From Puniceicoccales bacterium (GTDB lineage Bacteria > Verrucomicrobiota > Verrucomicrobiia > Opitutales > JAIRLM01), in contig JAITDL010000044.1 in assembly GCA_031282565.1 (NCBI GenBank), positions 1 through 35,876 of the forward strand: a stretch of 35,876 nt of DNA, given 5' to 3'. The translations under genes were made by a program, and so were the position numbers. This document shows, piece by piece, positions 7,991 to 24,693 of the stretch. The notes under the pieces were generated by a model. It saw only the letters and a program-made list of their open reading frames with translations. It was not told the origin of the DNA and searched no databases. The stretch's first letter is position 1. Every line of letters begins with the position of its first letter.

Positions 7991-9859
7991 GTGGACGAAA
8001 AAGATGTACTAGCAAAGACGGTGAGGAGCGTGCAGCTAGGCAATGCCGCCGCCGCTGCCAGGGTTGACGAAAAAAAGAAGGATACAATCCCTTTTGTGCC
8101 AAGTGCCAATGCAATGGCCGTCTCGGAAGCGAGAAAGCGCGAAAGAGATAGTGTGACCGTCGCTCCCGATGGCAGGCGGTCGGAATTGCCGGGGCGCAGC
8201 CAAAATTTGGTTGCGGAGCAGAAAAAGGCTCAGCTGGCTGGCGAATTTGCTCAGCTCCTTCACCTGCCAAGTGATGTGAAATCTGGCGCCGCACCGGGAG
8301 TCTATGTCAATTTTGCGAAGAAGCTATCCAACATCTTCCAGCGCAGGCAAAGTTCATCGGCAAAAAAAACGGATCTGCGCAGCAGCGACGATGAAGATGA
8401 CGATGATGCTCTGCCGCTCTCACTTGGTGTTGATGAGCCGGACGACGGTGGCGATGGCGATGATTTCCACGAAGAAGGTGAACTGGAATCGGATGAAGAT
8501 GGAGAATTGGCTTCCGCCGGCGGCGCGGAGGTTGGCCGCGAAGACGTTGCCATTGACAGGGCAAAAGCCGGTGGCAGCGGAGAGCGCAAAACTGTCACAT
8601 GGAAACAACTTTGGTCCAGGCACGCCGGCGATCTTGAAAACTATCCGCCACATCTGCTGCGACTTCTCGTTGCCGCGGAAAAGCAGTCGAAGTCCGTGGC
8701 CGAGCAGCACAATCTGCTAAACTACGCCAAGCAATGTGCGAAAATTGACGTCGAAATGCTTGGCTCCCAGGAGGCCGCCGCGGAAAAGCAATTGGATATT
8801 CTCAAGACAAGGGAAGACGAATTCAGTAAAAAGCGCTACGAGCGCACGAAAAAACTTCTGGCTGCGATCCGCCGCGATAGACGCAGCGCCGAACAATTTC
8901 TGGCGCAGGTTGAGTCGGCGATCGGCGTCATCGAAAGGGAAAGGGGAGACCAACTTCGCGACGAATACAAAATAGTTCCGAAGGCACGCTTTGTTAGCTC
9001 CGAGATGGGATGGAGCGGGTTCGACGCCGGTGCTGAACTCGCCGTCGACTACGTCAGTGACGTTTTGGCCATCGATGGCGCAAGTTTGTTTTTTGAAAAC
9101 TTCATAGGCAAACACATGGCCATGGGGTTTGAAACGTACTTTGACGCCATGCTCAAACTTCTCGGCGCCGACATTGCTTCGATCGATCCATCCAGGGAAG
9201 TAGCTCATCTATTGGCGGTTAGACAGGCATTGTTCGACGCCGAAATATCGCACCAAATCTACGATAGCGTAGTGCTAATTGATCAAAAACTCGAGCACAT
9301 TGGCATCATGCTCGAGCGGGAGAGCGGCTACTACGAACCGGTCTGGATGAAAATTGAGGTGGATGAAGATATGCTAACTGTTTCAACGGCAAGAGGTTAT
9401 GGCCCAATGGAGCCCGTAAAAACAATCGCGGTCTCCAATAGAAGTAACCATTTTGCAGAGCTTACGAAGCTTGTCAACAGCCTGCATGCGGACGGCATAT
9501 ACATGGAAAACTGCGCAACTGGCTGGGGCCGCGATCTCTTCTACGGCGTTCGCGTTCGCTACGGTTTGCCAATGCTGCGCAGGGAGTTGCCAGGTTGGAG
9601 GAGTGGCGCCACTAGAAGCGTCGCCCCATCGATTCCCGTGGCGAGGTTTTTTGGAGATCGTTCCGACAAAGCGCCAAGCCAAATAGAATTGAGACCGGCA
9701 TTTAGAAAAAATTTTGGCCGTTCGCTGCCTGTTCTTGGGAATAGGCCTGCATTTTTAAATCATTTTTTGTGTGCAGCCGTTCCGGATCCGCGTTCGACAC
9801 AAATCGCACCGGTAACAATTTGCGCCGGTATTTTTGCGCCAAGATCAGTTCGCTCCTAG
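7991..9859 (+). CDS. Orphan 622-codon ORF with an acidic tract. Possible T3SS gatekeeper (SctW/YopN/CopN)-like central region, a weak call.
   Basis: GTG at 7991, first ATG at 8117. Acidic tract SSDDEDDDDALPLSLGVDEPDDGGDGDDFHEEGELESDEDGE. The central helical region contains ...YFDAMLKLLGADIASIDPSREVAHLLAVRQALFDAEI..., which resembles the FLxKaLsADLxSxxPSxxxxxLxxvxxDLxxL block of YopN/CopN. The last ~95 codons are Arg/Pro/Ser-rich and may not be genuine coding sequence. Confidence 0.55.
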   Translation: MDEKDVLAKTVRSVQLGNAAAAARVDEKKKDTIPFVPSANAMAVSEARKRERDSVTVAPDGRRSELPGRSQNLVAEQKKAQLAGEFAQLLHLPSDVKSGAAPGVYVNFAKKLSNIFQRRQSSSAKKTDLRSSDDEDDDDALPLSLGVDEPDDGGDGDDFHEEGELESDEDGELASAGGAEVGREDVAIDRAKAGGSGERKTVTWKQLWSRHAGDLENYPPHLLRLLVAAEKQSKSVAEQHNLLNYAKQCAKIDVEMLGSQEAAAEKQLDILKTREDEFSKKRYERTKKLLAAIRRDRRSAEQFLAQVESAIGVIERERGDQLRDEYKIVPKARFVSSEMGWSGFDAGAELAVDYVSDVLAIDGASLFFENFIGKHMAMGFETYFDAMLKLLGADIASIDPSREVAHLLAVRQALFDAEISHQIYDSVVLIDQKLEHIGIMLERESGYYEPVWMKIEVDEDMLTVSTARGYGPMEPVKTIAVSNRSNHFAELTKLVNSLHADGIYMENCATGWGRDLFYGVRVRYGLPMLRRELPGWRSGATRSVAPSIPVARFFGDRSDKAPSQIELRPAFRKNFGRSLPVLGNRPAFLNHFLCAAVPDPRSTQIAPVTICAGIFAPRSVRS

Positions 9860-9873
9860 TTGCTCCATAAAAA

Positions 9874-10869
9874 ATGCCATTGACAAAGGCACGCGCCGCG
9901 CACAGCAACCGTTCCATGTTAAGTCCATTAGCAAATAGCGCGGATAGCGTAAAATCAATTCGAGCTTATTTCCCAGATGGCGGTAAAAAAATCGATCCGA
10001 GTAAAACCACTGAGGATAGATTCAATCCAGATGCCGCGAAGGTGTATAAGTACAACGGCAGTCTTCTGACTGCCGATCAGTTTCGCGACATTGAAGCGCA
10101 TTTAAAATTGAACGAATTCCCAGATGGACATTTGATTATGGCTGGCGTGCCGGATATTTTGTCTACCCATGCATGGTTCGCTAACTTCGGTCAGGGCGCA
10201 AAGATTGCAATTACGCCCATTGCTGGCCTGGACGCTAGGGAAGTCGATCCCTTTATTTGCGCTACAAAAATTGCTGGGTTTTTGAATCTTTTAGTCGAGC
10301 GCCCGTTGACGCAGGATGAGCGGGCTGATTTTGGCGGAGTACTTGCCGATTGTGCTAGTGTTATTTTACACGGTCTTGGCGATGATGGACTTGGCTTGTT
10401 TGGTAGCCGTAGGGTGCCGCAGGCTGATCCCCAAAAGGACGGCGCTGGCGTAGTCGAATTTAGCTCTAAAGACAGAGGGAGAAACCGCCTTGCGCATATT
10501 GGATACATAGCAGCTGTAATTGCGAATCGGTTCACTGATAAGCTCCATGAGCTGCGACTTACGTCCGGGAAAGCCTTGCTGAAAGAAAAATTTCCTGGGG
10601 TGGCGTTTGAAGTCAAATTGTATCGTGACTGCGCCGATGAAGCAAGAAGAATTGCTGCGGATCCGAAGTCGCCGCGTGTGATGCAGATTTTTGCGCCAGT
10701 TAAGGACGATAGTAAAACTGATTCCTATTCGACGCAATGGCTCGTTTTTTATTGGGATGGTGATAAGTTTCGTCCAAATCCATGCATCAAGAGAAGGACG
10801 AAAGTAGAATTTGCCAATTTGCTCATGGCAATGAAGAAACGGGTGCCACCCAATGCCGTGGCTGTTTAG
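9874..10869 (+). CDS. Orphan protein (331 aa), probably co-transcribed with the upstream ORF
   Basis: ATG at 9874, 14 nt after the upstream stop. An alternative ATG lies at 9916 (MLSPLANS...). Composition is normal and globular, with no motif I recognise. Its stop overlaps the stop of the convergent methyltransferase gene by 4 nt. Confidence 0.65.
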   Translation: MPLTKARAAHSNRSMLSPLANSADSVKSIRAYFPDGGKKIDPSKTTEDRFNPDAAKVYKYNGSLLTADQFRDIEAHLKLNEFPDGHLIMAGVPDILSTHAWFANFGQGAKIAITPIAGLDAREVDPFICATKIAGFLNLLVERPLTQDERADFGGVLADCASVILHGLGDDGLGLFGSRRVPQADPQKDGAGVVEFSSKDRGRNRLAHIGYIAAVIANRFTDKLHELRLTSGKALLKEKFPGVAFEVKLYRDCADEARRIAADPKSPRVMQIFAPVKDDSKTDSYSTQWLVFYWDGDKFRPNPCIKRRTKVEFANLLMAMKKRVPPNAVAV

Positions 10870-11648
10870 TGTCCGGTGCGCTTTGCCTCGTAGATGAAAA
10901 GGGCAGCTGCCGTTGCGGCGTTTAGCGAGTCTGATCCGCTGCCGCACATCGGTATGCGCAGGCACAGGTCGACGTTTTCCATCCAGAAGGCACTGAGTCC
11001 ATTGTGCTCATTTCCTATGGCAATTGCAAGTGGGCCCATGGGCATCGAATCCCAGTAGCACTTCTCGGCGCTGGGGCCGGTTCCAACAATGAAAATGCCG
11101 TTATTGCGGAGAAACTTAAGCGCATCTCCGTTGTCGCAGATTGCCGCTGGAACGGAAAAAATCGCCCCCTGTGAGGCGCGAATTGCGTTTGGATTCCAAA
11201 AATCCATGAGCGGATCGGTTGCGATTAGGAGGTTGCAGCCGGCGGCATCTGCTGTGCGGAGGATCGCCCCCAGATTTCCGGGTTTTTCGATGGATTCCGC
11301 GACTATGACCAGCGGGTTTGGCGCAAGTGATTTAGGGAGTTTCATCTCAGGGATTTTAGCCAGTGCTAGCACGCCATCGGGGTTTTCTCTCAATGAAATT
11401 TTTTCAAAAACGCTGCTGGGCAGCATAAAAACACGGCAATTCCCGGAGAATATTTTAACAAATTCGCCGTCGGCAGCTGCAGATTCATCCAGATAAATTT
11501 CCAAGAGATTAATGCCGTTTCCCTTCGCTCGCAGGCATTCGCGGCGCCCTTCTATGAAAAAATGTCCACTGCGCCGCCTGGCGTCGGCCTTTCTCAGCTC
11601 AACCAGGTGCAAAATGCGGCCGTTGCGTCTGCTTTCGATGCGTTCCAT
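10866..11648 (-). CDS. TrmH/SpoU-family RNA 2'-O-ribose methyltransferase (RlmB-like)
   Basis: 260 aa. SPOUT motifs LIVAESIEKPGNLGAILRTADAAG, IAIGNEHNGLS and IPMCGSGSDSLNAATAAALFIYE, plus an N-terminal substrate-binding-type extension. Confidence 0.85.
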   Translation of the reverse strand: MERIESRRNGRILHLVELRKADARRRSGHFFIEGRRECLRAKGNGINLLEIYLDESAAADGEFVKIFSGNCRVFMLPSSVFEKISLRENPDGVLALAKIPEMKLPKSLAPNPLVIVAESIEKPGNLGAILRTADAAGCNLLIATDPLMDFWNPNAIRASQGAIFSVPAAICDNGDALKFLRNNGIFIVGTGPSAEKCYWDSMPMGPLAIAIGNEHNGLSAFWMENVDLCLRIPMCGSGSDSLNAATAAALFIYEAKRTGH

Positions 11649-11705: not shown

Positions 11706-14700
11706 CTATGCAGTATCTTCTTCAGGTTTTTCTTTTTTCGTATCTGGAGTGATTCCAGGTTTCGGCTTGGGAAGCTTTTTCGTGACTTCCTGTCTCTTGC
11801 CGGCAATTTTTAGACCAACTTTTGCAACTTCTGCCGCTTTTTGGCCCATTGTTAGGACGGAAAACACGAGCCACGTGATTTCGCGCATTGTCCTAAATAG
11901 GAATCCGAAAAAGAATATGATGAAAATGCAAATAATGCAATAGCCGGCTACGGATTTGCCGTTTTCGGCGGCGTCCATGGCTCCTCGCAGAATTGCAAGT
12001 CCACTTTCATAGCGTTCCAAATTTAGTTTTTTGAGCGTTGATGTTCCGGCTATAATGTGGACTCTGGTTGCCTGATCGATGCCGCCGTCGTCCGGCGATT
12101 GGTAGGCAATCAGGATATTGCCACTTCTCCCGGTTCCGGCCGTTAGTTTAGCAAGTAGTGTGAAATCGGCGGCGGATTTTGTTGCAGAAGACGATGTTGG
12201 CTGTGATGCGTCCTGGTCGCCAGTCGGTTGCTGTTGGCTGCCGTCGCCGGCAGGAGACGCTGTTATGGCGGCCATGACCGGCTTGACAAACGGCGTAATG
12301 GCATGCTCTGCGAGCATCTCAACAACAGCTTGGCGGAATTGCGCACAATCCCCATCGGTTAACTCGTAGATGGCGTCTGCCATCGTTTTTTCGCCGTCGC
12401 ATCCAGCCGCTATATTTCCAAGGCAGGAGATAATTGTAAGTGGCGCATCGTCAACCGATTTTAGGAGAGATGGCTTACTGAAAACAATGTGATAGCAAGC
12501 GGCATTGATGATATCATTTTTTTGTGGAGGATGTTCTGGCATATTTTCAATATTCAGCTGATCGACTATTGATAGTAGGTCATTGTCGTCCGCGGTCTTT
12601 ATTATGTTGAGCGCAGCGGAAAGCATTTTCTCTCCAATAGTACGACTCGCGCAGTCACGCACACATTCAGCCAATTGCGCCAGCGGCATCAGACCGCTAC
12701 CATAGGCAATTTCCAGCAGGGCAGGCAGTGCTTCACTATGCTTTTCGAGAAAGGTAATGTGTCTATTCACAGATTCTAGTATTTTGCATATGGCTGCGGC
12801 GTAAAATTCAGCAGCTCTTGAATTGCTTTCCACGGATGCAGCAGTAAGCGGCGGCAGTGTGGCAAATATTTCTTGCAGGCGCTTTGCTTCCAATTTGGCT
12901 ACTAGCTCACCCGCCGTCGACGGCAAGCCGTTGTCGGCAAGCTTTTGAGCATAACTTTGGTCAAGCGTTAACTCTATGGCGTTGGTGAAATTGATCGTTT
13001 TTTTAAGCACAATATCAAACAGCGCTACGTCTTGACCGTTAAGTTTGATCTTCTTTGATGGATTTGCCAAAATGTATGCGAAGACTCCAATGGCCGTTTC
13101 TGGAGTTTTAGCGCCTGCTGTTTTAACGTCATTCAGTGATTTGATCCAGTCAGAAATCACCTCGATTGCCACAGGTGGGCCACCATCGGAAAAGACAATA
13201 TCAAGCGCGTCACTGAAACGTCGGTCTCCGGCGGCATAAATGGCATCTAGAATTGGTTTTATATGTGCTTTGCGAAGGTATTTAGCCGCCTGTTCCGCAT
13301 TAAAAAAGATGTCAACTAATTGGTTGATGTGCGCGGCGATTTGATTTTTCGTTTCATATGTAGTAACTATGGCGGCGACATTGTCGTCAATGGTGTCCCG
13401 TGCGGCTGACGTTGCGGAAGTTAATCCCGAGTCGCCGGCATGTTTTGTGCGTACCGGCCGTCTAGTAAGTGCTTCGTTGAGTTTAGCACTGCCGCTATTT
13501 TGTGCCGGCTTAGCGTCCTTGATATATGCGACGTATCGACTAAGTGCTTCTGTGCCTCTGATTGATTTACGCATGTCGGCAATTGTGAAATCACCAAAAG
13601 CCTTCGTCAAAACTGCAGCTGTTGCGAAATCTGAGCCAGGCACGGATGTACTTTCAATGGCGTTTGCTACCGCGGCAATTTGTTCTCCTGTGACGCATTG
13701 CCGAATGAGCTCTGCGGATTTATCTTTAATTCTCTGATCATTCGAATGTTGCGCTCCAAATATGGCAACCATGGCGAATGCAAGGCACGATTTGCTGGAT
13801 TTGTCGTCAATTACTAAGCGCTCAAAGTCGATGGAGCTAATGACTTCGAGTAGTCGAGCCGAATCTCTAAGCATAAATATTCCATAGTTATCGTTGGCGG
13901 CATTTAAAAATCTTGAAGCACAATTCCGCAGTAGATGTTTGCAAATCGCCGAGTTGTAATGGTCGTTCGTAAGTGAACTAACTCTGATGGCAAAGTCCTT
14001 ACCGATTTTATCTTCGTAGCTAAGCGCACTATTCTCACTAATTTCTGTGCCAATTGAATTTAGTAAGGCATTAAATGAATCTCTTTTGAATTCCGCCAGA
14101 GCATCGAGTTGTTCATTTGTGATGGCGGCGATTTGCTCTGCGGTGCCGTATGTCAAAACACCTGCCAAAATGTGCAGCACTGTGTAATTTCGAGCCTGTC
14201 CGTTGGGGGCAGTCAGACTGCCAACGATATTCTTCGGAATGGATTTGTAGGCCTCGTTGACACCCCTACACCTGTGGCGGGCGGCCTTTGATGCGGCATC
14301 ATATCCGCCAAGACATGACACGTCCTCAAGCCATTTTGGGTTTATTGCCTCCAGTTGCTTGGCTGAACAATGCTCAAACATGTGTTGAAACAGAGGCAGC
14401 TCGACATCTCCAGATTCCGTTTTGGCGCAACGGTTTAGCAGCCCAAAGAACTCAACCGGCAGCGCCTCTAGCAGCTTTTCAATTTCGGATCCAGTCAATT
14501 CTTCTTTGATGATCATTCTAGTGAGTAGCTCTACCCACTCCTTCTTGACGTCGTCAGCACTGGCAGAGAACAGTTTACCAAGGAGTGCTGGACTATTTCT
14601 AGCTAGGATTTTCAGATTTTCGCCGACCCCATCATTGAGTTCTGGGCCAAGCCCACATCTAGCATTTGGTTTGAAAGTTAGATATCGCGAAAGAAATCCA

Positions 14701-15491
14701 TTTGCGTCGATTGATTTTGACGCATCTCCAACCAGCACATCAATTCGTCTGTCGGAATTCAATAGTGAATCAAGATCAGCTTGCGGAATTCGCAATTGAC
14801 CTACCGCAGAAACAATAGCATCATCTCCTGATAGCAATGCCATCCACAGCAATATTGTGCCAACATTCATGCACCTGGTAGATTCGTCGCCGTAGCCCTT
14901 TGATTGCATTGCTTTCGCCAGACTAATTACGCCTTCAATGGCTCTGGCATTTGCCGCATTAAGTGCCGCTTCAAGTGGAATTTCGGTCGCCGACGAAAAA
15001 TGGCTACCACTCGGTAAGGATTTTATACCGGCGCATAGTTTCAAGCTGCCATGAATTAGTTCGCACAAGTACCAGGGGCTGATGAAGTCAGAGAAACGCG
15101 TTGGTTCATCTAGGTCGCTGAAGTACACCGAGGTGTTTGCGGACAGCAAATACAGAATTACTGGGCTTAAATTGCCATTGTATTCAATTTGCTTGCCGTC
15201 ATTGCTGTCGACGAGGTGCAATTCGAGCCTGCTCGAACTATCAGCACTGTCAGGGGAAAGTGCGATGGAACGAATTGCGACAAGAAATTTATCGCAAGCT
15301 GAGTCAACTCTAGGTAGCGGATCGAACTCGGCGATTTTTTCCAAGTCCCCTGAGTTCAGTATTTCTTTGACGGCATCAAAATATCGCTTTGGTAGCTCAT
15401 TTTGTTCGACTACAGCCGCAGCAGGTGCTGCTTCAGGACTGCCTTGTTGCCGACTGACTGCTGGATCGCCCATTTGCCCACATGGAAGCAT
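11706..15491 (-). CDS. Giant orphan protein A (paralogue of B). Helical-repeat-like, with a C-terminal hydrophobic anchor.
   Basis: The maximal ORF is 11706-15617 (1303 codons). The likelier starts are ATG 15491 (MLPCGQ) or 15473 (MGDPAV), because the first 42 codons look non-coding. No enzymatic motif is visible. C-terminal module ...YCIICIFIIFFFGFLFRTMREITWLVFSVLTMG... followed by a Lys/Pro-rich tail. Confidence 0.8.
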   Translation of the reverse strand: MLPCGQMGDPAVSRQQGSPEAAPAAAVVEQNELPKRYFDAVKEILNSGDLEKIAEFDPLPRVDSACDKFLVAIRSIALSPDSADSSSRLELHLVDSNDGKQIEYNGNLSPVILYLLSANTSVYFSDLDEPTRFSDFISPWYLCELIHGSLKLCAGIKSLPSGSHFSSATEIPLEAALNAANARAIEGVISLAKAMQSKGYGDESTRCMNVGTILLWMALLSGDDAIVSAVGQLRIPQADLDSLLNSDRRIDVLVGDASKSIDANGFLSRYLTFKPNARCGLGPELNDGVGENLKILARNSPALLGKLFSASADDVKKEWVELLTRMIIKEELTGSEIEKLLEALPVEFFGLLNRCAKTESGDVELPLFQHMFEHCSAKQLEAINPKWLEDVSCLGGYDAASKAARHRCRGVNEAYKSIPKNIVGSLTAPNGQARNYTVLHILAGVLTYGTAEQIAAITNEQLDALAEFKRDSFNALLNSIGTEISENSALSYEDKIGKDFAIRVSSLTNDHYNSAICKHLLRNCASRFLNAANDNYGIFMLRDSARLLEVISSIDFERLVIDDKSSKSCLAFAMVAIFGAQHSNDQRIKDKSAELIRQCVTGEQIAAVANAIESTSVPGSDFATAAVLTKAFGDFTIADMRKSIRGTEALSRYVAYIKDAKPAQNSGSAKLNEALTRRPVRTKHAGDSGLTSATSAARDTIDDNVAAIVTTYETKNQIAAHINQLVDIFFNAEQAAKYLRKAHIKPILDAIYAAGDRRFSDALDIVFSDGGPPVAIEVISDWIKSLNDVKTAGAKTPETAIGVFAYILANPSKKIKLNGQDVALFDIVLKKTINFTNAIELTLDQSYAQKLADNGLPSTAGELVAKLEAKRLQEIFATLPPLTAASVESNSRAAEFYAAAICKILESVNRHITFLEKHSEALPALLEIAYGSGLMPLAQLAECVRDCASRTIGEKMLSAALNIIKTADDNDLLSIVDQLNIENMPEHPPQKNDIINAACYHIVFSKPSLLKSVDDAPLTIISCLGNIAAGCDGEKTMADAIYELTDGDCAQFRQAVVEMLAEHAITPFVKPVMAAITASPAGDGSQQQPTGDQDASQPTSSSATKSAADFTLLAKLTAGTGRSGNILIAYQSPDDGGIDQATRVHIIAGTSTLKKLNLERYESGLAILRGAMDAAENGKSVAGYCIICIFIIFFFGFLFRTMREITWLVFSVLTMGQKAAEVAKVGLKIAGKRQEVTKKLPKPKPGITPDTKKEKPEEDTA

Positions 15492-15818
15492 TTTTTTTTG
15501 TAATGTCAAGGGTGTCCGAATGGCGATTGCGTGTATTTGAACTAATTGCCGGCCGCCATTTCGCTTAAAAAGCAAATTGCGCGCGAATTCGCAGTGCGGC
15601 GCAAATGGCTGAGTCAAAAAAACTCACAGGAAAATTTGCCGCAGACATTGACGAACAGCTAAAATGCCAATGCGCGCCACAAAAAACCTTAACTAGCGGC
15701 TGTAAAATTTTTGCGCGTCGCCATTTTCAGCGGAGGCTTCCGCAAATCGAGCGATTTTGCATTTTTTTACCTTTACTTCGCTGGCACATTGGGCAACCTA
15801 TTGATCGTGGTATCTGCT
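15492..15818. promoter_or_regulatory. Shared divergent control region between giant paralogues A and B
   Basis: About 330 bp without convincing coding sequence between the likely starts. It contains four GCAAAT/ATTTGC boxes (15573-78, 15602-07, 15635-40 inverted, 15742-47), a 10-bp palindrome GCGAATTCGC (15584-93) and TTGACA at 15503-15508 on the minus strand. Promoters are assumed rather than demonstrated. Confidence 0.4.
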
Positions 15819-18782
15819 ATGACAGGTATGGATAGTGGCAACGTAAAGCAGGCCGATGATTGGGCTGTTGACTCGAATATTGCTGTTTTTTTGGCACTTG
15901 TTACCACTCAGCTCTCCATTGGCTCCCCCAGTAAAATCGAAGACGATGAAAAAAGCCTTAGTGGTGCGATCATAGCTAGTGCGCACGCCACATTGGGTGG
16001 CTATTCGCTTTGCACTTTGAGCGGCCTAACACCAAGCGACGCTAAATTTAATAGCTGCTTCGTTGGCAATCCATATGCGTTCATGTTTGCACTGGCGAAT
16101 GGCTGCGACATTAATGCAGAAGGTGGCGCTACGGAGAATATTAGTTTGGCGTGCAAACTAGACGACAATTCCGTATTTACGCTTATTTGCAAAAGTCTGC
16201 CAACCATAGCGGAAGCTGCATGCCTCGCAAGAGATGATGGCAATACCGATCTTGCGAAGGAAATTGATGAGGCTAGCACTAGGATGTTTGCGAAGGTTGA
16301 CTTTGAAACTGCAAAACGCTGGGCTAGCATTATCAGGAAAAGGGGATCCGCCAATTCGGCGAACTACGAAAAGCACATTGCGACATTTCTCGCGAAGCTG
16401 TTTTGTGGAGTATTCATATACGGCAGCCAAGAAACAATTAAATCATACGACGGAAGTGGGGCTGATTTTTTTGCGCCCATTTCCGGTCCGATTTTTGATT
16501 TCGGCTTCGAAGAGAGAATAAAGTCCAGCCAGGAGGAGGAAATACGCGGTGACTCGTGGGTCATTGCTGCGGTCGGTGACCGTGCTATTCCAGGAAGACA
16601 CGTCGATGATTTTGCAAAGTCGATGCGGGCGAGCCCTGAACTTACAGAATTTTTACTTGAAGTAGCCGACGGAAAAAACGCAGATCAAGTGGCAAGGGCC
16701 GTGCGTGAAGTTCCATCGCAGCTGACAGGTGCGGGCGCCAGATATGAATCATTTGGCGAAAACTCCAAACTGCTAGTCAATCTGTCACTTACTGCGGAGA
16801 ACGCCCAACAAGTGTTTTCCACAGCAAATGGCACGCAAATTGGCGGGATTAACTATTTGGAGCTAACTAAAACTGTAGACGATGGATATAATGCTGGATG
16901 CCAATGTCCTTTTATAGATACATTGCCTGCTCGGCAGGCCATAGCTGCGGCAGGTCCGGCCATAGTTGCTGGGCTCGAAACTGGGCCCGAAAAGTTCACA
17001 GGGTCATTGGTGGCGATGGCAATTCTGCGGTTTGGTGGTGTGGAAGCAGTTAACGCGCTAACTAGGGAGCAAATCGACGGTGCGATAGAAGGTGTTACTG
17101 CCGCAGAAAATCAGCGAAGGATACGTCTAGGAAGCCAGCATCAAGAAGTGGTTAGTGGAGTAACTTGCGGCGTGTCGTTTGCAAATTTCTATGGAGCCAG
17201 ATTGCAACCGGCTGCCGCTGGACCTGTGACTGCCGAAGAGGAAAAAAAGTTAATCAACGATACGGCACATGCCATTGGCTCTGCGGTATGTGATCGGGGA
17301 AGTGCAGCGTCCGAAGTGCATGGCAATGGGTTTTCCAATCACCCGAGAGAAGTTAAATTTTCGCCAAACTATAGAAGGATTGTGCAGGGATTGAGCGGAA
17401 ATTCCTGTGCTTTAGCTTTTCTTGCCGAGGAAGCTCCGCGCGAAGTGTTGCAGTTTGTTCGTCTGAGCCAGGCCACTGATGGCTGCAAAGGCGAGATGTT
17501 TAAAAATTTTGCCAAGGTAATTGGCCCCGACGAAGTTAGAGGGCTTTTCACTGAAAATGAGGAGACATTGGATCCGCAGCTGGCTAGATCCGACTATCGC
17601 CCAGACCATGCTGCGCGCGATCTTTTCTTTGGATACCTGCTCATGTGCGGTTCAGATAGCCAGCGCAGAGCTCTCAGTGAGCGGCAGTTGGTTCTTGGGT
17701 TGAATGCCATAATGAAGTACAACGAAACTAGTGTTTTGCCTCTCGCCGGCTTCCCGACTGCCGCCGTGTGCCGCGAATTGTTCAGCAGGTTAAGTGATGA
17801 TGTTTTGGTAAAATTGGAACCGCAGCTCGATGCCGAACGTAGCCAACTGGATCAGCAAATGCGCATTGCCATTCAGCATCACATATTCTTCAGCGCCAGG
17901 GGGAAGCTTTCAGATAATCTCAGCGGCGAGCAGCTATTCGAGGTCATGCATGCAATCGCAATAAGCGGTGCCGCGGCCGCTGTGCGCGATGGCTCGACGA
18001 ACCTAACTGACACGAGATTGGATGACAGCGGAGATACTTTTCGCCGCGACAGGACAATTGTTGAATTTGTTGCCACACTCAGCAAGGCGCAGGCCAAGAA
18101 GTTGGTTCTAGTAATCAATAATGCTGCAGCGGATGGAAATGGCGGCAGAGAGAAAATCAAAGAGATTTTGTTTGGCTTCGCAGATCAGCCGGCGAACGCA
18201 TTTTGCGTCCTTGCTCCGCGGCAAACATTTCCCGTAAATATCCAGCTACTTGGCATTTCCCGCGGCGTGCCAGACTCCATTTCCGCATTCCCGACGCTGG
18301 CTGCGCTGATTGAAAAATCCGGCAAATCGATGTCAAATGATGTCGTTGAATTGCTGATTGCGAATAGTTTGCCGGCAGATGATATAAGTAAGGATTTGGT
18401 GGCAACGGCTGTGAACATAGTTAACCACGTGGCACTGTTGACGGTTTTCTCCGTGGAGGAATTGCTGCCGCAGATTTCGGATTCAAGTAAATCGTCATTT
18501 TGGCGCATCACCGAACTTGCCAATGATCCCAATAGAAGCCTCATTGGCGTTCGCATCATAGTGCTTCTGCAGCTGATCTTTTTCGGATTTCTTTTTCAGG
18601 AAATTCGCGCGCAATTTTTCATCGCCTGGCGCGTGTTCTACGCAAGCAACGTGGTAGCAAATGAAATTCTAACTGCCGTACTGTTCGCCACCGCCATAAG
18701 CTCCCATGGATTCCATGCCGTATACGAGAAGTCCGGCATAGGCGGCGCCGTTGGTAAAGATGCGTTTGTGCCAATTGAGTAG
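15819..18782 (+). CDS. Giant orphan protein B (paralogue of A). Helical-repeat-like, with a C-terminal hydrophobic anchor.
   Basis: The maximal ORF starts at TTG 15711 (1023 codons). The first ATGs are at 15819 and 15828 (MTGMDSGNV). No enzymatic motif is visible. C-terminal module ...RIIVLLQLIFFGFLFQEIRAQFFIAWRVFYASNVVANEILTAVLFATAISS... Confidence 0.8.
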   Translation: MTGMDSGNVKQADDWAVDSNIAVFLALVTTQLSIGSPSKIEDDEKSLSGAIIASAHATLGGYSLCTLSGLTPSDAKFNSCFVGNPYAFMFALANGCDINAEGGATENISLACKLDDNSVFTLICKSLPTIAEAACLARDDGNTDLAKEIDEASTRMFAKVDFETAKRWASIIRKRGSANSANYEKHIATFLAKLFCGVFIYGSQETIKSYDGSGADFFAPISGPIFDFGFEERIKSSQEEEIRGDSWVIAAVGDRAIPGRHVDDFAKSMRASPELTEFLLEVADGKNADQVARAVREVPSQLTGAGARYESFGENSKLLVNLSLTAENAQQVFSTANGTQIGGINYLELTKTVDDGYNAGCQCPFIDTLPARQAIAAAGPAIVAGLETGPEKFTGSLVAMAILRFGGVEAVNALTREQIDGAIEGVTAAENQRRIRLGSQHQEVVSGVTCGVSFANFYGARLQPAAAGPVTAEEEKKLINDTAHAIGSAVCDRGSAASEVHGNGFSNHPREVKFSPNYRRIVQGLSGNSCALAFLAEEAPREVLQFVRLSQATDGCKGEMFKNFAKVIGPDEVRGLFTENEETLDPQLARSDYRPDHAARDLFFGYLLMCGSDSQRRALSERQLVLGLNAIMKYNETSVLPLAGFPTAAVCRELFSRLSDDVLVKLEPQLDAERSQLDQQMRIAIQHHIFFSARGKLSDNLSGEQLFEVMHAIAISGAAAAVRDGSTNLTDTRLDDSGDTFRRDRTIVEFVATLSKAQAKKLVLVINNAAADGNGGREKIKEILFGFADQPANAFCVLAPRQTFPVNIQLLGISRGVPDSISAFPTLAALIEKSGKSMSNDVVELLIANSLPADDISKDLVATAVNIVNHVALLTVFSVEELLPQISDSSKSSFWRITELANDPNRSLIGVRIIVLLQLIFFGFLFQEIRAQFFIAWRVFYASNVVANEILTAVLFATAISSHGFHAVYEKSGIGGAVGKDAFVPIE

Positions 18783-19071: not shown

Positions 19072-20595
19072 CTATTTATCGCAGTTGTTTTCACCAACTT
19101 CTTCGGACGTCATTGATCTGGTTGACGTTTCTATTTGTTCGAGTGGCTTAGGTTCTTCGCTGCGAAGCGATTTCATTCGTGAAAAGTTTTGTAGCGTCGG
19201 CCGAAGGCGGCTTTCGATGGACGCGACGGTGCCGTTGTAGGAATCGACGGTGCGGCGAAGATGTCTGCCCGTATCTGATAGCTTTTCCCAAACAACTTGC
19301 GTGCGTTCAATTAGGACCTTTGCGAGATCAACTATGGCGTTGGCTTCTCTCGCCGTTGCCGACTGTGCCCAGCCGCTGGCGATTGTTTTTAGGAGGGCAA
19401 GTAGCGTCATCGGAGACGCTAGTAGGACATGGCGCTCGACGGCCTCGTCGAACAGTTCCGGTCTGACCTCCAGGGCTGCAGCGTATATGTTATCACCTGG
19501 GAGAAAGAGAATTACGTAGTCGAATGTGGCTGCAAAGAATTTCCAATAGTTTTTCCTGCCGAGCTCCTGGATGCGGGAAAAGACATTTTGCCCGTGCTGC
19601 TTGCGCAATTCCATCCGCCGTTCGCTGCTGTCCGCTTCTTCGGCCGCCGCGTAGGCTTCCATTACTGCCTTGGCGTCAACGATTACATTGCGGCCGTCTG
19701 GCAAGTGGATGACCATGTCGGCGCGCAAAGTTCCGCTGTCGGCTGCAACGGCCACCTGCTCGTCGAAGTCGACATGTTCCCGCATTCCAGCCATTTCCAC
19801 CAAACGACGCAGGTGAAGTTCGCCCCAGCGGCCGCGGAGATGGGACTGGCGCAGCGTGCGGTTTAGCCGTTTGGCTTCAATGTCTAATTCTTTATTGCTG
19901 AGCAGCATCTGTCGAATTTGCTCCTCAAACCTAGCCATCGATTCGTTCCATTGGCGATCGTTTTGCTGCACGCGACCTTCGAGCCGATCCACGCAGTCGC
20001 GCATAGGCTTCAGAACGTTTTCCAGCCGTTCCCGTTGGGCAACTCCATTCACCGCATTGCTTTCCTGCAGTTTGGCCAATGCTTCGGCCGATGCCTTCGT
20101 TGCCGCTGCGCCAAATGCCGTCTCCAGTTCTTTGCGAACTTTCTCCAGGAGAGCTATTTTTTCGTCGTTAATCTGCCTTCGTTCGCTGTCTCGTCCTCGA
20201 AATTCGGCATATTCGCGGTCTAGGGCATGAAATTTTTCTACGAGTTCGCGGAGATCGGTTTCCGCGGCTTCGCGGAGATTACGTTCACTGATAAGTTCTT
20301 TGCTGCGCGTGCGGAGCACTGCGAAAAGCCATGCGGCGGCCGCGCAAAGTGCCGCTGCGAGAAATAGCGAAATTATTGGGCACCAATTCACGCAGCCCGT
20401 TGAGAGATTTTTCACGATCTGCGCAATGGAAAACTGCACATTCCACGGCGGGATAAAAAAAGTGGATTTGCGCAAACGCTTCGCACAATGGCAGTTTGAA
20501 TAATTCAATTTTTCGCAGTTGACTGCTTCGCCATAGCTGCTAAAATAACCCAATGGCAAATCCACCGCACAGCGTAGGTTCCAGCGATGAACCAC
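19072..20595 (-). CDS. rmuC: DNA recombination protein RmuC
   Basis: N-terminal TM segment (CPIISLFLAAALCAAAAWLFAVL), a long coiled coil, and the RmuC nuclease-like C-terminal domain (...RGRWGELHLRRLVEMAGM...DMVIHLPDGRNVIVDAKA...DYVILFLPGDNIYAAALE...). ATG 20595 overlaps the divergent ORF at 20553 by 43 nt. Internal GTG starts at 20415 or 20391, just before the TM segment, are plausible. Confidence 0.85.
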   Translation of the reverse strand: MVHRWNLRCAVDLPLGYFSSYGEAVNCEKLNYSNCHCAKRLRKSTFFIPPWNVQFSIAQIVKNLSTGCVNWCPIISLFLAAALCAAAAWLFAVLRTRSKELISERNLREAAETDLRELVEKFHALDREYAEFRGRDSERRQINDEKIALLEKVRKELETAFGAAATKASAEALAKLQESNAVNGVAQRERLENVLKPMRDCVDRLEGRVQQNDRQWNESMARFEEQIRQMLLSNKELDIEAKRLNRTLRQSHLRGRWGELHLRRLVEMAGMREHVDFDEQVAVAADSGTLRADMVIHLPDGRNVIVDAKAVMEAYAAAEEADSSERRMELRKQHGQNVFSRIQELGRKNYWKFFAATFDYVILFLPGDNIYAAALEVRPELFDEAVERHVLLASPMTLLALLKTIASGWAQSATAREANAIVDLAKVLIERTQVVWEKLSDTGRHLRRTVDSYNGTVASIESRLRPTLQNFSRMKSLRSEEPKPLEQIETSTRSMTSEEVGENNCDK

Positions 20596-21809
20596 CTTCC
20601 ATGTTTAACGATAACTGGGTGGTAGGTATTGAGCCAACCACGGCTCCAGGCGAATTTGACACGCTATTGGAGAAAAAAGGCCACTATTCATGGGGCAGAC
20701 CTGGTGTGCCGATTGTTTTTAGAAAAGGCTTCCACATGAAAGGTGGCGATGGAAGTATCGCAATGGAGTTCGCCTCACGGTTTGTGGATGCGAAGGTTGG
20801 AGAAAGTGTTCATCTTGAAATGGGCGCTAAAAATAGGAAATTGACTGTTGTAGTCAATAAACAGACGAAAAGCTTCGTTGCCAATGTCGATAGGCTTGTC
20901 AGAGGAGATAAGCCAGACCGGCGCGAAATCGTCATATGGTGGGCCCTGGCAATTATCACCTGTGGAATTTATGTCGCGCTAGTAAATAAAAGCACGCTCG
21001 CCAAATCCTATAATGTGCTGCAGTCGAGAATTGAAAAATTTCCTGGAATGGCGCGCGAAATGCAGGTAGTTGCCTGCTTGCTCGATATGGTTGCCGAGAG
21101 CGCCACCCCCATCTGTCGCAGCCAAGACTTGCCGGCAATGTTTGCGGACATACTAAATACGTACTACGCGCGGGTCCGCAATGAAGGAGATTTTACGCAC
21201 ATAGAGGAAGCCAGGGCATCGGTCGCGATTGTTGCAAATGTCCTTGGGGGATATGGCTGTGCAGATGCCTTTTTACAGCGCGTTGTGCTGGATATTCAAC
21301 CGCGCAAAGACGAAACTAGTGGAAAATATTTGCCCGTTGAACGAGTAGTTCCTGCTCCCGTTGTGCCAGCGGAACTTCCTCCGGTGCCCGAATGTGCCGC
21401 TACGTCGGAGTTGCCGGATGTGCGAGAGCTGGAGGATATGCCGGAGAGGCCTGGTATATTTATGCCAAATGGTCGGCGGTTGCGGAGGGACGTTCCGGGC
21501 AATGCGAGGTTTATTTTGCCGCAAAGACAGGGTGAGGGTGGTGCCGTTTCCGCCTGGCGGCGTGAAGAAAATGCAAGGAGGCGCGCAGCCGATGCCCCAA
21601 CGCCACCTGCATCGGAAGAGCAACATGACGCCGACGCGCCGTCACCGGAAGATGATGCGTTGATTAATTTGGCGAATGAAGATCCAATGAAACGTATCCA
21701 GGAAGAGATGTTGGGGGTTGTCGCGAAAGCTCAATTCGATGGGCCTAAACCGGCGACGGATGGTGATCCGTCCGTATTTAGGACGCCTCCCACTAAAAAA
21801 GGCACGTGA
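20553..21809 (+). CDS. Orphan protein (418 aa) with one TM segment and a Pro-rich, charged C-terminal half
   Basis: ATG at 20553. TM segment IVIWWALAIITCGIYVALV. C-terminal ...VVPAPVVPAELPPVPECAATSELPDVRELEDMPERPG...APTPPASEEQHDADAPSPEDD... No recognisable family. Confidence 0.6.
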   Translation: MANPPHSVGSSDEPPSMFNDNWVVGIEPTTAPGEFDTLLEKKGHYSWGRPGVPIVFRKGFHMKGGDGSIAMEFASRFVDAKVGESVHLEMGAKNRKLTVVVNKQTKSFVANVDRLVRGDKPDRREIVIWWALAIITCGIYVALVNKSTLAKSYNVLQSRIEKFPGMAREMQVVACLLDMVAESATPICRSQDLPAMFADILNTYYARVRNEGDFTHIEEARASVAIVANVLGGYGCADAFLQRVVLDIQPRKDETSGKYLPVERVVPAPVVPAELPPVPECAATSELPDVRELEDMPERPGIFMPNGRRLRRDVPGNARFILPQRQGEGGAVSAWRREENARRRAADAPTPPASEEQHDADAPSPEDDALINLANEDPMKRIQEEMLGVVAKAQFDGPKPATDGDPSVFRTPPTKKGT

Positions 21810-24693
21810 GCGACACCTCCAGTGACCCGCTGGTGTACTCTTTCCTGGAGAACTTTCCGGTGCCGTACATGGCGAGTTCACACTGGCGACCTATGCCAGT
21901 TTTTGCGCCGACTGTTGCCACGGCTTTCCCCTTGCGGCAGTGGTCGTTGACTTTTGCGATGAATGGATTTTCCAAGTTGTCAGCCGATCCAACTGCAGTC
22001 GTATGGCGTTGCTTCTGTTTTGTTTCAAATCCTGCGCGGACGAATAGCCGCGATTTTAAGTCCGGATCAATGCTAGGCTGTCCAAATTCCAGGTTTATGC
22101 CTACGATGGCTACTCCGATGTCGTGGCTGACTTCCGATAGACTTGCCCTGCTCGGGCCGCTGCCGGTTTCTTCGTATTTTTTGTGGCGGACGTAGTTGTA
22201 GCGCGCTTCAGCCCAGGGGCCAAATTGCACGGAGCCGAAGCGTAGGACATTCTGCGATAAAAGAATGAAGCAGTGCCCGCCGAAATCGTTGAACCTTGCC
22301 AGGTATTCGTCGCCCTGGACGCTGATGCGGGCGGAAGAATTCTTGCCTCTGCTGCAGCCGCACAGTACGTTAAGTGTCGTGCGCTTTTTGTGTGCACTCA
22401 TGTGGTCGAAGTGTGATGCCACAGCTGCGAAACAGGAATCGTGCTGCGTTGTCTTTATGCCGAAGTTTATTGTTTCGCCGGCGCAATCGACTCTGTTTCT
22501 GCCGCAGCCAACTAGGATTCCATAGCGCATGGAGCTGTTCATTGAGTGTGACACATAGGCTTCTCCAAGTACAAGCCCGTGGAATTTGCCGTCCAGCCAG
22601 AAGTCGCTGTCGTCATCATAGGGCTCATAGCGCGTTGTGCCGGCGAAGGCTGAGACAAACATCCCGCTGGCGTATGAGTTTGCCACGTGCTGCGTGCCGG
22701 AGTGGAGGCCAACTTCGAGCAATTCAAGTTTGGCCCGCGTAAGGTCGCCGTGGGGGAACACTTCCGCGTAGCGCTGGTACCTAGCAGGCGAGGCTCCAAC
22801 GATTTGGCCGTGCAGCGCATCATATGCGTTTTGGAGTTTCGCCACATTTTCGTAGAATTCTGCAAGCTTAGCAAAATTCGAGCTGTGTATGTCTGTGGTG
22901 CTTTCTAACGTGGAAAGTTTTTCTGTGAGTCCTGTTACTATTTCGCTGAGTGCAGAAAGGTCCTCCAGCGTGGCCAACACCCTATCGCCTCCATCCTCAA
23001 TGGTACCATTTTTGAGCTGTTCTTTCAGGTTTTCAAGGTCGCCGCTATTGGTTGGGCTACTTTGCAGGTCGCTCTTTTTCGCAAAATTCTCTTCAGCATC
23101 ATTTTTGCTGAGATAGTCGCTAAGGCTGTTGTTTAGTGCCTCCGTAGTCGCGTAGGTGTTGAGCTCGCTTTTCGTTGCAAATGTATCAGTTAAGTCGTCC
23201 GTTGCAGCATAGTTTGTGAGGTCATTTTTCGTTGCATAGGCGCTGAGGTCTTCTTTTTTTACGTATGTGCCATCTAAGCCGTCCGTTACAGCATAGTTTG
23301 TGAGGTCGCTTTTCGTTGCATAGCTATTTAGATCTGCCACCGTTGCGAGATATTGCGTGCTGCCATTTTTGTAAATTTTCCCCTCTTCCAACTTGGCCCT
23401 AAGAATTTTCAACTTAGCATCTAATGCGGCGACGTCTGACTTTAGGGCCAAAGTCGGCTGCCCACAGTGGCAGTTGCAATCGCCTGCCGTGCAGCACACT
23501 TCCTCCGTTGCGGCACCAACCGTGCAATCGCATGCCTGAAATCCGTCACAGCCGTGGACGTGGCTGCATCCGATTAGTCTATTTAGCAGATCAATGGTCA
23601 CGAGAGCATTTTTGCTGTCGATTTTGCCATCCTTTAGGTCCGCCTTTAGTGCGTCGATGGCATTGCCAACGCTATCGGTCACCGATGCCGATGTGGCATA
23701 GGTTGCTTGCGCTTCCGTCTTGCTGAGGCAGCTATCTTCCAGGGCAGTAAGGTCATCCGTTTTTGCCAGAACCTGTGCTTCGCAATGGGGAAGCTTCCCC
23801 TGTTTCAGTGCATTTTTTAGGGATTTGAGGTCGCTGTTTGTGGCAAGGATCTTGTTTCCGCAGCCTGGAGTATTGGTCAATTTGCCGCTCTCAAGAGCTT
23901 CTTTTAGGTCTCTAATATCTTCCACCGTTGCCAATTTTTGCTGCTTCCAAAAATCAATTTTTCCTCTTTCGAGTGCATCCTTCAGTTTTTCAAGATCCGA
24001 GTGCAGTGCAAGTATTTGCGCCGCTCCATGTTCGGGACTGAGCTTGCCATGGTTTAGCTGCCCAATAAGATTGTTTAATCTTTCCGTTGTCACTAGTTCC
24101 GGACCGGTCCTGTTGCCATTTACTTCGCCATTTTGCAAATTTTTGGCGAGATTCCCAATCGCATCGTCGACGTATTTCTGGACCGACGAAAGATCAATTT
24201 CGCCGCCGCCGCCATGCTCCTGGATGTAACCGATTAAATCGCTTTTCACGCTTTTAATTTGCTCTCCAAGAGCTGCCAGCTCACCATCTGTCGCGAGATA
24301 TTTAGTGTCATTGATGGCGCCGGTTTGCAAAAGTTCATCGGCTGAATCCATGGCGGCATGTATGCCGACTTCGCACCGCTGGATGTACTTCGGCATCCAG
24401 TTTAGGTATGCGTATAGCGCATCAAGATTGGCAAAATTTTCGAGGCCGTGAGCTAAATATGTGATCTCTTCCCTTGACAGCGGACCCGAATAATCTCCTG
24501 GGGCGAGGTAGCGCTCATCGACGTCATTGTATTTCTTGTAGCCTTCCCTAAACGTGTCGAAATCTACTTCATATGCCGGCGGCACCTGTGCCGTGTCATC
24601 TGCGAATGCCGGAGAAGATCCGGAAAATATCGGCGCCAAGGCTAGTGCGGCGGCTAGGAGGATTCGACGCCTGGTGGTGCAACAGGTTCCCAT
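21793..24693 (-). CDS. Type Va autotransporter-like outer-membrane protein with a repeat-rich, coiled-coil-like passenger
   Basis: Signal peptide MGTCCTTRRRILLAAALALAPIFSGSSPAFA-DD. The C-terminal ~290 aa show an alternating beta-strand pattern and end in ...SLEVSLTCLF (terminal Phe), as in autotransporter beta-barrels. The passenger carries LATxxDLxxLKxALxxGK modules, a 9-Cys cluster and YATKxDLTNY repeats. Confidence 0.78.
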   Translation of the reverse strand: MGTCCTTRRRILLAAALALAPIFSGSSPAFADDTAQVPPAYEVDFDTFREGYKKYNDVDERYLAPGDYSGPLSREEITYLAHGLENFANLDALYAYLNWMPKYIQRCEVGIHAAMDSADELLQTGAINDTKYLATDGELAALGEQIKSVKSDLIGYIQEHGGGGEIDLSSVQKYVDDAIGNLAKNLQNGEVNGNRTGPELVTTERLNNLIGQLNHGKLSPEHGAAQILALHSDLEKLKDALERGKIDFWKQQKLATVEDIRDLKEALESGKLTNTPGCGNKILATNSDLKSLKNALKQGKLPHCEAQVLAKTDDLTALEDSCLSKTEAQATYATSASVTDSVGNAIDALKADLKDGKIDSKNALVTIDLLNRLIGCSHVHGCDGFQACDCTVGAATEEVCCTAGDCNCHCGQPTLALKSDVAALDAKLKILRAKLEEGKIYKNGSTQYLATVADLNSYATKSDLTNYAVTDGLDGTYVKKEDLSAYATKNDLTNYAATDDLTDTFATKSELNTYATTEALNNSLSDYLSKNDAEENFAKKSDLQSSPTNSGDLENLKEQLKNGTIEDGGDRVLATLEDLSALSEIVTGLTEKLSTLESTTDIHSSNFAKLAEFYENVAKLQNAYDALHGQIVGASPARYQRYAEVFPHGDLTRAKLELLEVGLHSGTQHVANSYASGMFVSAFAGTTRYEPYDDDSDFWLDGKFHGLVLGEAYVSHSMNSSMRYGILVGCGRNRVDCAGETINFGIKTTQHDSCFAAVASHFDHMSAHKKRTTLNVLCGCSRGKNSSARISVQGDEYLARFNDFGGHCFILLSQNVLRFGSVQFGPWAEARYNYVRHKKYEETGSGPSRASLSEVSHDIGVAIVGINLEFGQPSIDPDLKSRLFVRAGFETKQKQRHTTAVGSADNLENPFIAKVNDHCRKGKAVATVGAKTGIGRQCELAMYGTGKFSRKEYTSGSLEVSLTCLF
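23059..23355 (-). repeat. In-frame tandem repeats inside the autotransporter passenger (YATKxDLTNY-type)
   Basis: Protein sequence YLATVADLNSYATKSDLTNYAVTDGLDGTYVKKEDLSAYATKNDLTNYAATDDLTDTFATKSELNTYATTEAL... At the DNA level, two 49-nt copies lie 84 nt apart (23191-23239 and 23275-23323) and differ at 4 positions, with a degenerate third copy near 23163-23183. Confidence 0.75.

Follow-up and report, generated by a model that had tools for sequence, protein, structure and literature searches.

A contig from a Puniceicoccales bacterium (JAITDL010000044.1 of assembly GCA_031282565.1) carries two giant genes that point away from each other, here called A and B. The question raised by this locus is what their products are and where they act. 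The window analyzed is the entire 35,876-bp contig. The longest open reading frames (ORFs) of the pair are A, at 11706-15617 on the minus strand (1303 codons), and B, at 15711-18782 on the plus strand (1023 codons), which confirms the two divergent giant ORFs reported in a first-pass annotation of this DNA. The public gene calls start internally. Gene A (P0001, the A-type member) is called at 11706-15473 (-) from an ATG at 15473 and encodes 1255 aa, and its longest ORF reaches a TTG at 15617. Gene B (P0002, the B-type member) is called at 15807-18782 (+) from a GTG at 15807, encodes 991 aa, and is defined by its ORF and by external profiles. A long form of B (P0003, 1023 aa), called by IMG, starts at the TTG at 15711. 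A divergent spacer of 333 bp with a GC content of 0.456 (15474-15806) lies between the annotated starts. Judged by their sequences, A and B are old paralogues. They belong to an undescribed sequence family whose putative theme is that of a membrane-anchored, helical-repeat host-interaction protein.

Direct similarity between A and B is weak. BLASTP of A against B returns two collinear high-scoring segment pairs, the first covering the C-terminal 121 residues (31% identity, E 4e-5) and the second covering A 411-509 and B 366-460 (E 0.008). The local alignment score is 105, against 47.7 +/- 5.7 in 300 shuffles (z 10), and drops to 67 when the hydrophobic module and tail are left out (z 3.2, p ~0.01). 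The decisive comparison uses leave-out profiles, which are built from external relatives with A and B excluded and are non-circular. A profile of the core, about 260 aa and made from the five external relatives only, detects A at E 2.5e-42 and B at E 2.5e-15. A profile of the C-terminal module, made from P0004 and P0006 only, detects A at E 1e-20 and B at E 1.5e-10. Paralogy, as the first-pass annotation proposed, is settled because these profiles and the intermediate sequences detect both proteins.

That proposal had rested on by-eye alignments, a shared DNA word, and a recurring helix-start motif. The first aligned block (A ...GVLTYGTAEQIAAITNEQLDAL with B ...AILRFGGVEAVNALTREQIDGA) is contained in the second BLASTP segment pair and is the most conserved motif of the family. 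The second block is a ~90-aa repeat module that is clear in A (residues 569-636) but weak in B (residues 599-639, independent E-value (iE) 0.22). The 13-mer TCTTTTTCGGATT is real and occurs only at 11902-11914 (-) and 18577-18589 (+), with 0 expected. It consists of the in-frame codons xTC-TTT-TTC-GGA-TTx, which encode [I/F]-F-F-G-F in both genes, and the match widens to 33 nt at 79%. Because these are the codons of the shared [I/F]FFGF, the DNA identity adds no evidence independent of the protein similarity. The motif [ST]x[ER]Q[ILV] is enriched, with three copies in A and three in B against ~0.12 expected (P <= 0.0005), but "peppered" was too strong a word for three per protein. The DNA also holds a 16-nt perfect inverted match between 15574-15589 and 18602-18617 (AAATTGCGCGCGAATT / AATTCGCGCGCAATTT), which joins the A/B spacer to the B coding sequence just past the FFGFLF codons (EIRAQF). 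Such a match is estimated at ~0.01-0.03 by chance in 7.8 kb.

The two proteins had been described as orphans. This holds for word-index homology searches, where A and B each retrieved only the queries themselves. It fails in an exhaustive phmmer (HMMER) search with A residues 56-1255, which found five true relatives among 1.84 billion representative proteins. These are P0004 (2580 aa, E 3e-53), P0005 (973 aa, E 3e-13), P0006 (1064 aa, E 2e-6), P0007 (1309 aa, E 2e-6), and P0008 (509 aa, E 6e-6). All five are annotated as "MAG: hypothetical protein [Puniceicoccales bacterium]", where MAG stands for metagenome-assembled genome, and none has a Pfam match, in line with the claim of an undescribed family. 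P0009 (906 aa, E 3.4e-4) was rejected as a relative; it is a run of leucine-rich-repeat-like units, and the match was read as spurious. The absence of a known motif in A and B, noted earlier from the letters alone, is borne out by blank results in Pfam, NCBIfam, PHROGs, and PDB sequences. PADLOC gave only a 13.9-bit CARF match (E 0.0044), taken as chance.

Pairwise comparisons tie the members together. A matches its closest relative, P0004, at E 3e-36 and 1e-22 and P0006 at E 2e-10. B is closest to P0006, which it matches at E 2e-21 and 3e-19, with ~630 residues covered together. P0006 in turn matches P0007 (E 3e-29) and P0008 (E 3e-42). A groups with P0004 (A-type) and B with P0006 and P0008 (B-type); the duplication therefore predates the split of these MAG lineages. 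Two paralogues, P0006 and P0007, also occur together in a second MAG, whose locus-tag prefix is LBF24. Members from different MAGs share only 25-36% identity, and B, which has lost several core motif residues, has diverged furthest. P0005, P0007, and P0008 are cut by contig ends, which leaves A, B, P0004, and P0006 as the complete members. The remaining orphan ORFs of the window and of the fetched relative loci yielded no further member. Scans of metagenome contigs for G[VI]Lx[YF]G[TS]A[ED]Q and for the FFGF anchor gave no confirmed relatives and also missed the relatives' own contigs; the collection evidently does not hold these samples, because those contigs went unmatched. This is a small, fast-diverging family, so far seen only in termite-gut Puniceicoccales (Opitutales) MAGs.

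The conserved core is the best-defined part of the family. In A, the family alignment places it at residues 284-540 (13854-14624, -), with the motif GVLxYGTAEQ[IL]xAxTxEQ[IL] at residues 438-459 (14097-14162, -). In B, the external profile places a diverged core at residues 248-559 (16548-17483, +), with the motif AILRFGGVEAVNALTREQIDGA at 17019-17084 (+). The core signature, ...SGYD..(6)..RW..K.VR..Y..IP... followed by G[VI]Lx[YF]G[TS]A[ED]Q[LI]xAxTxEQ[LI], is recognized in A and B by the family profile. At its invariant positions the core has G, P, F, Q, Y, L, G, A, Q, and G. The core looks non-catalytic because these residues hold no nucleophile or acid-base set.

An AlphaFold2 (AF2) model of A residues 205-650, built on a 7-sequence alignment, has a mean predicted local distance difference test score (pLDDT) of 66 and a predicted TM-score of 0.65. 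The pLDDT reaches 74-94 for roughly residues 284-474, which are modeled as short helices and one small beta-hairpin. In this model the core is made of short 3-helix units of about 40 aa, in which [ST]xxE/Q helix-capping motifs recur. A single-sequence model of B is all-helical at a pLDDT of 38 and otherwise uninformative. A Foldseek search of the PDB with the core model gave nothing significant (E >= 7e-3, TM-scores 0.19-0.30, root-mean-square deviations 13-21 A), and a search of BFVD gave nothing. The non-significant neighbors are only armadillo, importin-alpha, beta-catenin, PP2A-A, and PUF solenoids. The models of the A core and of B thus agree with the alpha-solenoid character that had been predicted, and the Foldseek neighbors are of the solenoid class, but none is significant; together they suggest a core of the alpha-solenoid class. 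Two profile matches were set aside. A 28-residue match to PDB 9zem "HeliScrew4" (E 5.8e-5), probably a designed helical protein judging from its name, falls on the best-conserved motif of the family (GVLxYGTAEQLxAxTxEQLD) and was read as a shared helix-capping motif rather than as homology. A match to FliQ in PDB sequences (E 1.1) was read as chance.

Armadillo (ARM) and HEAT proteins (importin-alpha, beta-catenin, PP2A-A, and designed armadillo) are thus the best Foldseek neighbors of the core model. They are set apart by the lack of a significant match and of any Pfam ARM or HEAT match at E <= 1, and the ~90-aa module of the family is longer than an ARM or HEAT repeat. This module has the consensus LDEDVRLAVLAAAFSNPQAFFG....LTAEQIVELLN..., seen in A as the pattern ...R.AvL...f.....f......LTaEQiveLLN.... 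The one clear copy in A spans residues 569-636 (13566-13769, -). P0007 has five copies, P0004 at least five, and P0005 and P0006 two each, and B shows only weak ones at residues 599-639 and 699-728. First-iteration E-values outside the seed run from 7e-13 to 3e-5 (P0005, P0004), with an iE of 0.015 for A; values after iteration 1 are circular. A low-complexity linker rich in Ser, Gln, Pro, and Thr (A residues 1073-1100, 12174-12257, -) precedes the anchor module, and P0004 carries a comparable S/T/A/P-rich linker at the same place. The N-termini are polar or disordered and poorly conserved. The N-termini of the annotated forms show a Sec-type signal peptide in no member.

The C-terminal hydrophobic module that first drew attention to the pair is real and is conserved in all four complete members. 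The P0004/P0006 profile places it at A residues 1132-1230 (11784-12080, -) and B residues 864-966 (18396-18704, +). In A, the hydrophobic segment VAGYCIICIFIIFFFGFLF (residues 1175-1193, 11895-11951, -) has a Kyte-Doolittle value over 19 residues (KD19) of 2.74 and is the sole segment competent for a transmembrane (TM) helix. In B, the main segment LIGVRIIVLLQLIFFGFLF (residues 912-930, 18540-18596, +) has a KD19 of 2.52; it is less hydrophobic than that of A and contains R and Q. TM competence was taken as a crude Hessa-scale sum over a 19-residue window. Exactly one such window, always C-terminal, is found in each of the four, with sums of -3.8 (A), -3.3 (P0004), -0.6 (B), and +0.1 (P0006). 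The signature S...(13)...FFGF.F...R is likewise present in all four, and S43, F57, F58, G59, F60, F62, and R66 are invariant in or next to the TM segment. This conservation suggests, at the level of sequence, that the module does more than anchor the protein and has a specific role in packing or recognition. P0004 ends ...LIFFGFAFRKMREIAW... (A-like) and P0006 ends ...LQLIFFGFFFASIRAQFY... (B-like); the IFFGF module does, as had been anticipated, define part of the family.

The earlier description of an identically placed TM or hairpin anchor stands in part. FFGFLF starts 68 (A) and 67 (B) residues from the C-terminus and is followed by 62 and 61 residues, so the counts were right. The agreement is a coincidence, because the tails past FFGFxF measure 62, 61, 39, and 46 aa in the four complete members. 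These tails are not conserved between members; that of A is charged and basic (14 K+R) and ends ...KKEKPEEDTA. One strong TM segment is present, but a hairpin is not established. Hydropathy of the module looks bilobal, with a first lobe of 19-21 residues, a polar loop of 5-6 residues (RTMRE / QEIRAQ), and a second lobe of 10-13 hydrophobic residues, which is broken off by Gly or a charge. On this crude scale, a Hessa sum <= 3 is reached by no second 19-residue window. The complete members are described, from their sequences, as giant, all-helical, and non-enzymatic-looking proteins with one C-terminal hydrophobic anchor and no signal peptide. Membrane anchoring and a helical scaffold character follow from the sequence and the predicted model.

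The relatives make a host-associated setting plausible for the family. The RmuC protein of the window is 63-71% identical to that of the Puniceicoccales MAGs Cc175_bin8 and Ct408_bin89, and the next matches fall below 40%. These labels refer to two lower termites, Cryptotermes cavifrons (Cc175) and Calcaritermes temnocephalus (Ct408) (Mies et al. 2024, PMC11257099). The termite Opitutales families LL51 and UBA9783 are reduced-genome putative flagellate endosymbionts that have been linked to the endonuclear Ca. Nucleococcus (PMC11257099), and the "Nucleococcus cluster" comprises nuclear and cytoplasmic protist endosymbionts (PMC8204192). The contigs of the relatives have a GC content of 0.52-0.54 and the window one of 0.52. 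Within the window, A (0.474), B (0.496), and the spacer (0.456) lie below the remaining contig (0.528).

Each relative's gene stands alone among unrelated housekeeping genes. Its neighbors are, by locus, GH77, ferredoxin, MiaB, and PPDK; yebC; CTP synthase and a sigma-54 activator; and a sigma-70 factor and an aminotransferase. The B-type genes P0006 and P0008 are both divergent from yebC. The divergent pairing of an A-type with a B-type gene, which had been put forward as a co-regulated pair, was not seen at the loci of the relatives and is therefore not conserved. Synteny by way of rmuC was uninformative in the two closest MAG loci, which are too short or have other genes beside rmuC, and tblastn found no relative of A or B there. 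At the P0004 locus (L040:20999-23543, -), a called gene of 5442 aa runs off the locus ~7.5 kb downstream of P0004. This further giant orphan gene of a related MAG has no Pfam match, and the three family profiles are unmatched in its fetched part.

The contig of P0008 (L045; GCA_031282685.1, JAITDG010000037.1) carries genes of a type III secretion system (T3SS). SctK (YscK/OrgA family, 33.1 bits, cutoff 22) and SctL (50.4 bits, cutoff 23.3) span L045:25-1415, 4.7 kb upstream of P0008. Since both lie above the Pfam cutoffs, an injectisome-type (non-flagellar) T3SS exists in this termite-gut verrucomicrobial lineage. An 845-aa ORF without a family match follows at L045 1929-4466. The secretion machinery seen overall consists of this T3SS in the lineage and of a type II secretion system (T2SS)/type IV pilus (T4P)-type ATPase and platform protein in the window. 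A host-associated setting, which the first-pass annotation had only surmised, is plausible given relatives from termite-gut Puniceicoccales MAGs, one of them near sctK/sctL.

The reading that is tentatively preferred, though short of probable, is that the members are translocated, host-membrane-anchored scaffolds or effectors, most plausibly exported by the T3SS, whose helical part binds host factors. It is favored because of the narrow distribution, fast divergence, paralogy, and repeat variation of the family, its probable host association, and the injectisome in the lineage. The members would be non-enzymatic scaffolds or adaptors that the bacterium exports, most plausibly through the injectisome-type T3SS of its lineage. 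The C-terminal hydrophobic module would then insert into the host (flagellate) membrane that faces the symbiont, and the huge helical domain would stay in the host compartment and bind host factors. Binding specificity would then vary with the paralogue and with the number of repeats.

Several observations weigh against such a translocated effector. Export and the target membrane are inferred from context alone, and the placement of the window in the endosymbiont clade comes from one marker (RmuC) and the distribution of the family. No T3SS gene was found in the window and no conserved chaperone or secretion neighbor at the family loci; the proximity of sctK/sctL to P0008 is a single case, perhaps one that a compact genome produced by coincidence. 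The composition of the N-termini is unremarkable. When B is read from the TTG at 15711, it gains the N-terminal hydrophobic segment FAFFYLYFAGTLGNLLIVV (KD19 1.86), and this extension (15711-15806, +; MRVAIFSGGFRKSSDFAFFYLYFAGTLGNLLIVVSA) resembles a signal anchor or a signal peptide with a VSA cleavage-like site. A comparable upstream in-frame extension is present in none of the five relatives. Lobe 2 is too short or too charged for a confident TM helix, which leaves the hairpin unestablished. Membrane substrates of T3SSs are reported to be moderately hydrophobic, which avoids targeting by the signal recognition particle (PMC6110835). The A-type TM segment, with Hessa sums of -3.3 to -3.8, exceeds the hydrophobicity reported as typical of such substrates (PMC6110835). 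A segment of this kind would favor entry into the inner membrane of the bacterium itself, if only as an intermediate.

This last point leads to the main rival, a possible if doubtful one, in which the members are cytoplasmic scaffolds anchored in the inner membrane that stay in the bacterium and serve a lineage-specific envelope or division-related process. The very hydrophobic A-type TM segment should insert readily there, and a protein with no signal peptide has a cytoplasmic N-terminal domain by default. The neighbors are housekeeping genes (those for the SpoU methylase, RmuC, yebC, CTP synthase, and miaB), with no conserved secretion or chaperone neighbor, and FFGF.F...R could reflect packing on a bacterial membrane partner. 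Housekeeping scaffolds, however, are usually more widely and more strongly conserved than a family with 25-36% identity in one clade, and many paralogues with variable repeats are typical of host-interaction proteins. A single span would also require the tail of 39-62 aa, basic in A, to cross the membrane.

A second rival keeps translocation and changes the route. Export would proceed through a type IV secretion system (T4SS) with an inner-membrane intermediate, or through a route specific to the Planctomycetes-Verrucomicrobia-Chlamydiae (PVC) group, with the C-terminal tail as the signal; this is improbable. The model for it is provided by the Legionella proteins SidF and LegC3, substrates of the Dot/Icm type IVb system (T4bSS), which show that large effectors with C-terminal TM segments are a workable design and which have an Nin-Cin topology, a short periplasmic loop, and a C-terminal signal (PMC11602083). 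The family parallels their architecture, in which hydrophobic C-terminal segments and a short tail follow a large soluble N-terminal part, and shares strongly hydrophobic TM segments that would enter the bacterial inner membrane first (PMC11602083). Such hydrophobicity suits the two-step T4bSS and is less suited to a T3SS, and the A tail is charged up to its ...KKEKPEEDTA end. The family has no sequence or fold match to these effectors and shows no catalytic signature, whereas a defined phosphatase domain is present in SidF. T4SS genes were seen neither in the window nor at any fetched locus, where the only secretion machinery seen consists of the T3SS parts (lineage) and the T2SS/T4P-type parts (window), and the tails in which the signal would lie are not conserved between members.

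The idea that A and B are unrelated ORFs with chance or convergent similarity, or not genes at all, draws on their weak similarity outside the hydrophobic segment and on the ease with which F-rich segments align, but is refuted by profiles without A or B that detect both in two separate, collinear regions, by the ~630-residue match of B to P0006, and by the fact that the ORFs are intact over 991-1255 codons and have conserved relatives in other MAGs. Phage, defense, adhesin, autotransporter, and enzyme readings were also dropped. PHROGs was blank, PADLOC gave only the CARF match, and there is no signal peptide, no beta structure, and no set of invariant catalytic residues.

The likeness to Inc proteins, raised in the first-pass annotation, is one of design. 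Both groups are lineage-restricted, multi-paralogue, and largely alpha-helical, with no enzymatic signature and a hydrophobic domain that contains a polar break, and both belong to PVC bacteria of lineages with an injectisome and a probable intracellular lifestyle. The family differs in having no sequence homology to Incs, in being far larger, in carrying its hydrophobic domain 40-60 residues from the C-terminus, and in a second lobe that is not a confident TM segment. Incs are described as Chlamydiae-specific (PMC3048545), and RmuC and all relatives place this family in the Verrucomicrobiota, within the Puniceicoccales/Opitutales. For this reason the family is Inc-like at most and not an Inc family; its likeness to Incs, as to the Legionella TM effectors, goes no further than design. 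Tail-anchored proteins share a single strong TM segment and the lack of a signal peptide. They differ in that the family has 39-62 residues past the TM segment (the norm is ~30), a second lobe, and, in A, a highly charged tail. The PVC "membrane-coat-like" proteins are large, membrane-associated proteins that combine a beta-propeller with an alpha-solenoid. In contrast, this family is predicted to be all-helical without a beta-propeller, has an integral hydrophobic anchor, and shows no sequence relation to them.

Symbioses of termite-gut flagellates with intracellular bacteria are ecologically important, and almost nothing is known of the molecules that link verrucomicrobial symbionts to their protist hosts. 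A clade-specific, multi-copy, very large, and membrane-anchored family in a lineage with an injectisome offers concrete candidates for this interaction, and the three profile models (core, ~90-aa module, and FFGF anchor) can be used to trace it. If translocation is true, the PVC superphylum would have evolved Inc-like strategies repeatedly; if the proteins are retained in the bacterium, they form a lineage-specific giant envelope scaffold of narrower interest. The fullest version of the effector reading is unlikely as a whole. It would make these proteins the first host-membrane-inserted effectors of verrucomicrobial protist endosymbionts and an independent Inc-like system in the PVC group, with an ARM/importin-like scaffold held by the FFGF anchor in the membrane that faces the symbiont and with A-, B-, and third-type paralogues that each recruit different host factors. 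In this version, the target membrane in endonuclear relatives (Ca. Nucleococcus) could be the nuclear envelope.

The surroundings of the pair in the window are mixed. A SpoU-type rRNA methylase gene (10866-11648) lies past the 3' end of A on the low-coordinate side, and rmuC converges on B. The spacer, which had been regarded as a shared control region, contains a single weak sigma-70-like match at 15636-15665 (+), which does not exceed the chance level, and a promoter scan of the A/B region found no more sites than chance. Other genes of the window encode the T2SS/T4P-type ATPase and platform protein, a heptosyltransferase, a PriA-like helicase, an autotransporter, ribosomal protein S9, a class I tRNA synthetase, a DksA-type zinc-finger protein, and LspA.

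Many ORFs of the window have no family match, and lineage-specific coding sequence makes up a large share of the contig. Six more large ORFs (331-771 aa) without a Pfam or NCBIfam match lie at 3405-5720 (-), 7991-9859 (+), 9874-10869 (+), 20553-21809 (+), 31235-33055 (-), and 33784-35799 (-); they resemble neither A, nor B, nor one another. The ORF at 3405-5720 overlaps a T2SS-F-like gene by ~400 bp, and its true start is therefore probably further downstream. The autotransporter is a 966-aa protein at 21793-24693 (-) with a C-terminal autotransporter beta-domain (PF03797, E 3e-10) and an uncharacterized passenger, which makes it a candidate surface or adhesion protein near A and B. The PriA-like protein at 5978-7570 (-) has only 530 aa. 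It scores 179 bits against TIGR00595, below the 230-bit cutoff, and its alignment begins only at model position 51. This may be a replication-restart helicase that has been shortened or has diverged, as would suit a genome that is reduced or evolves fast.

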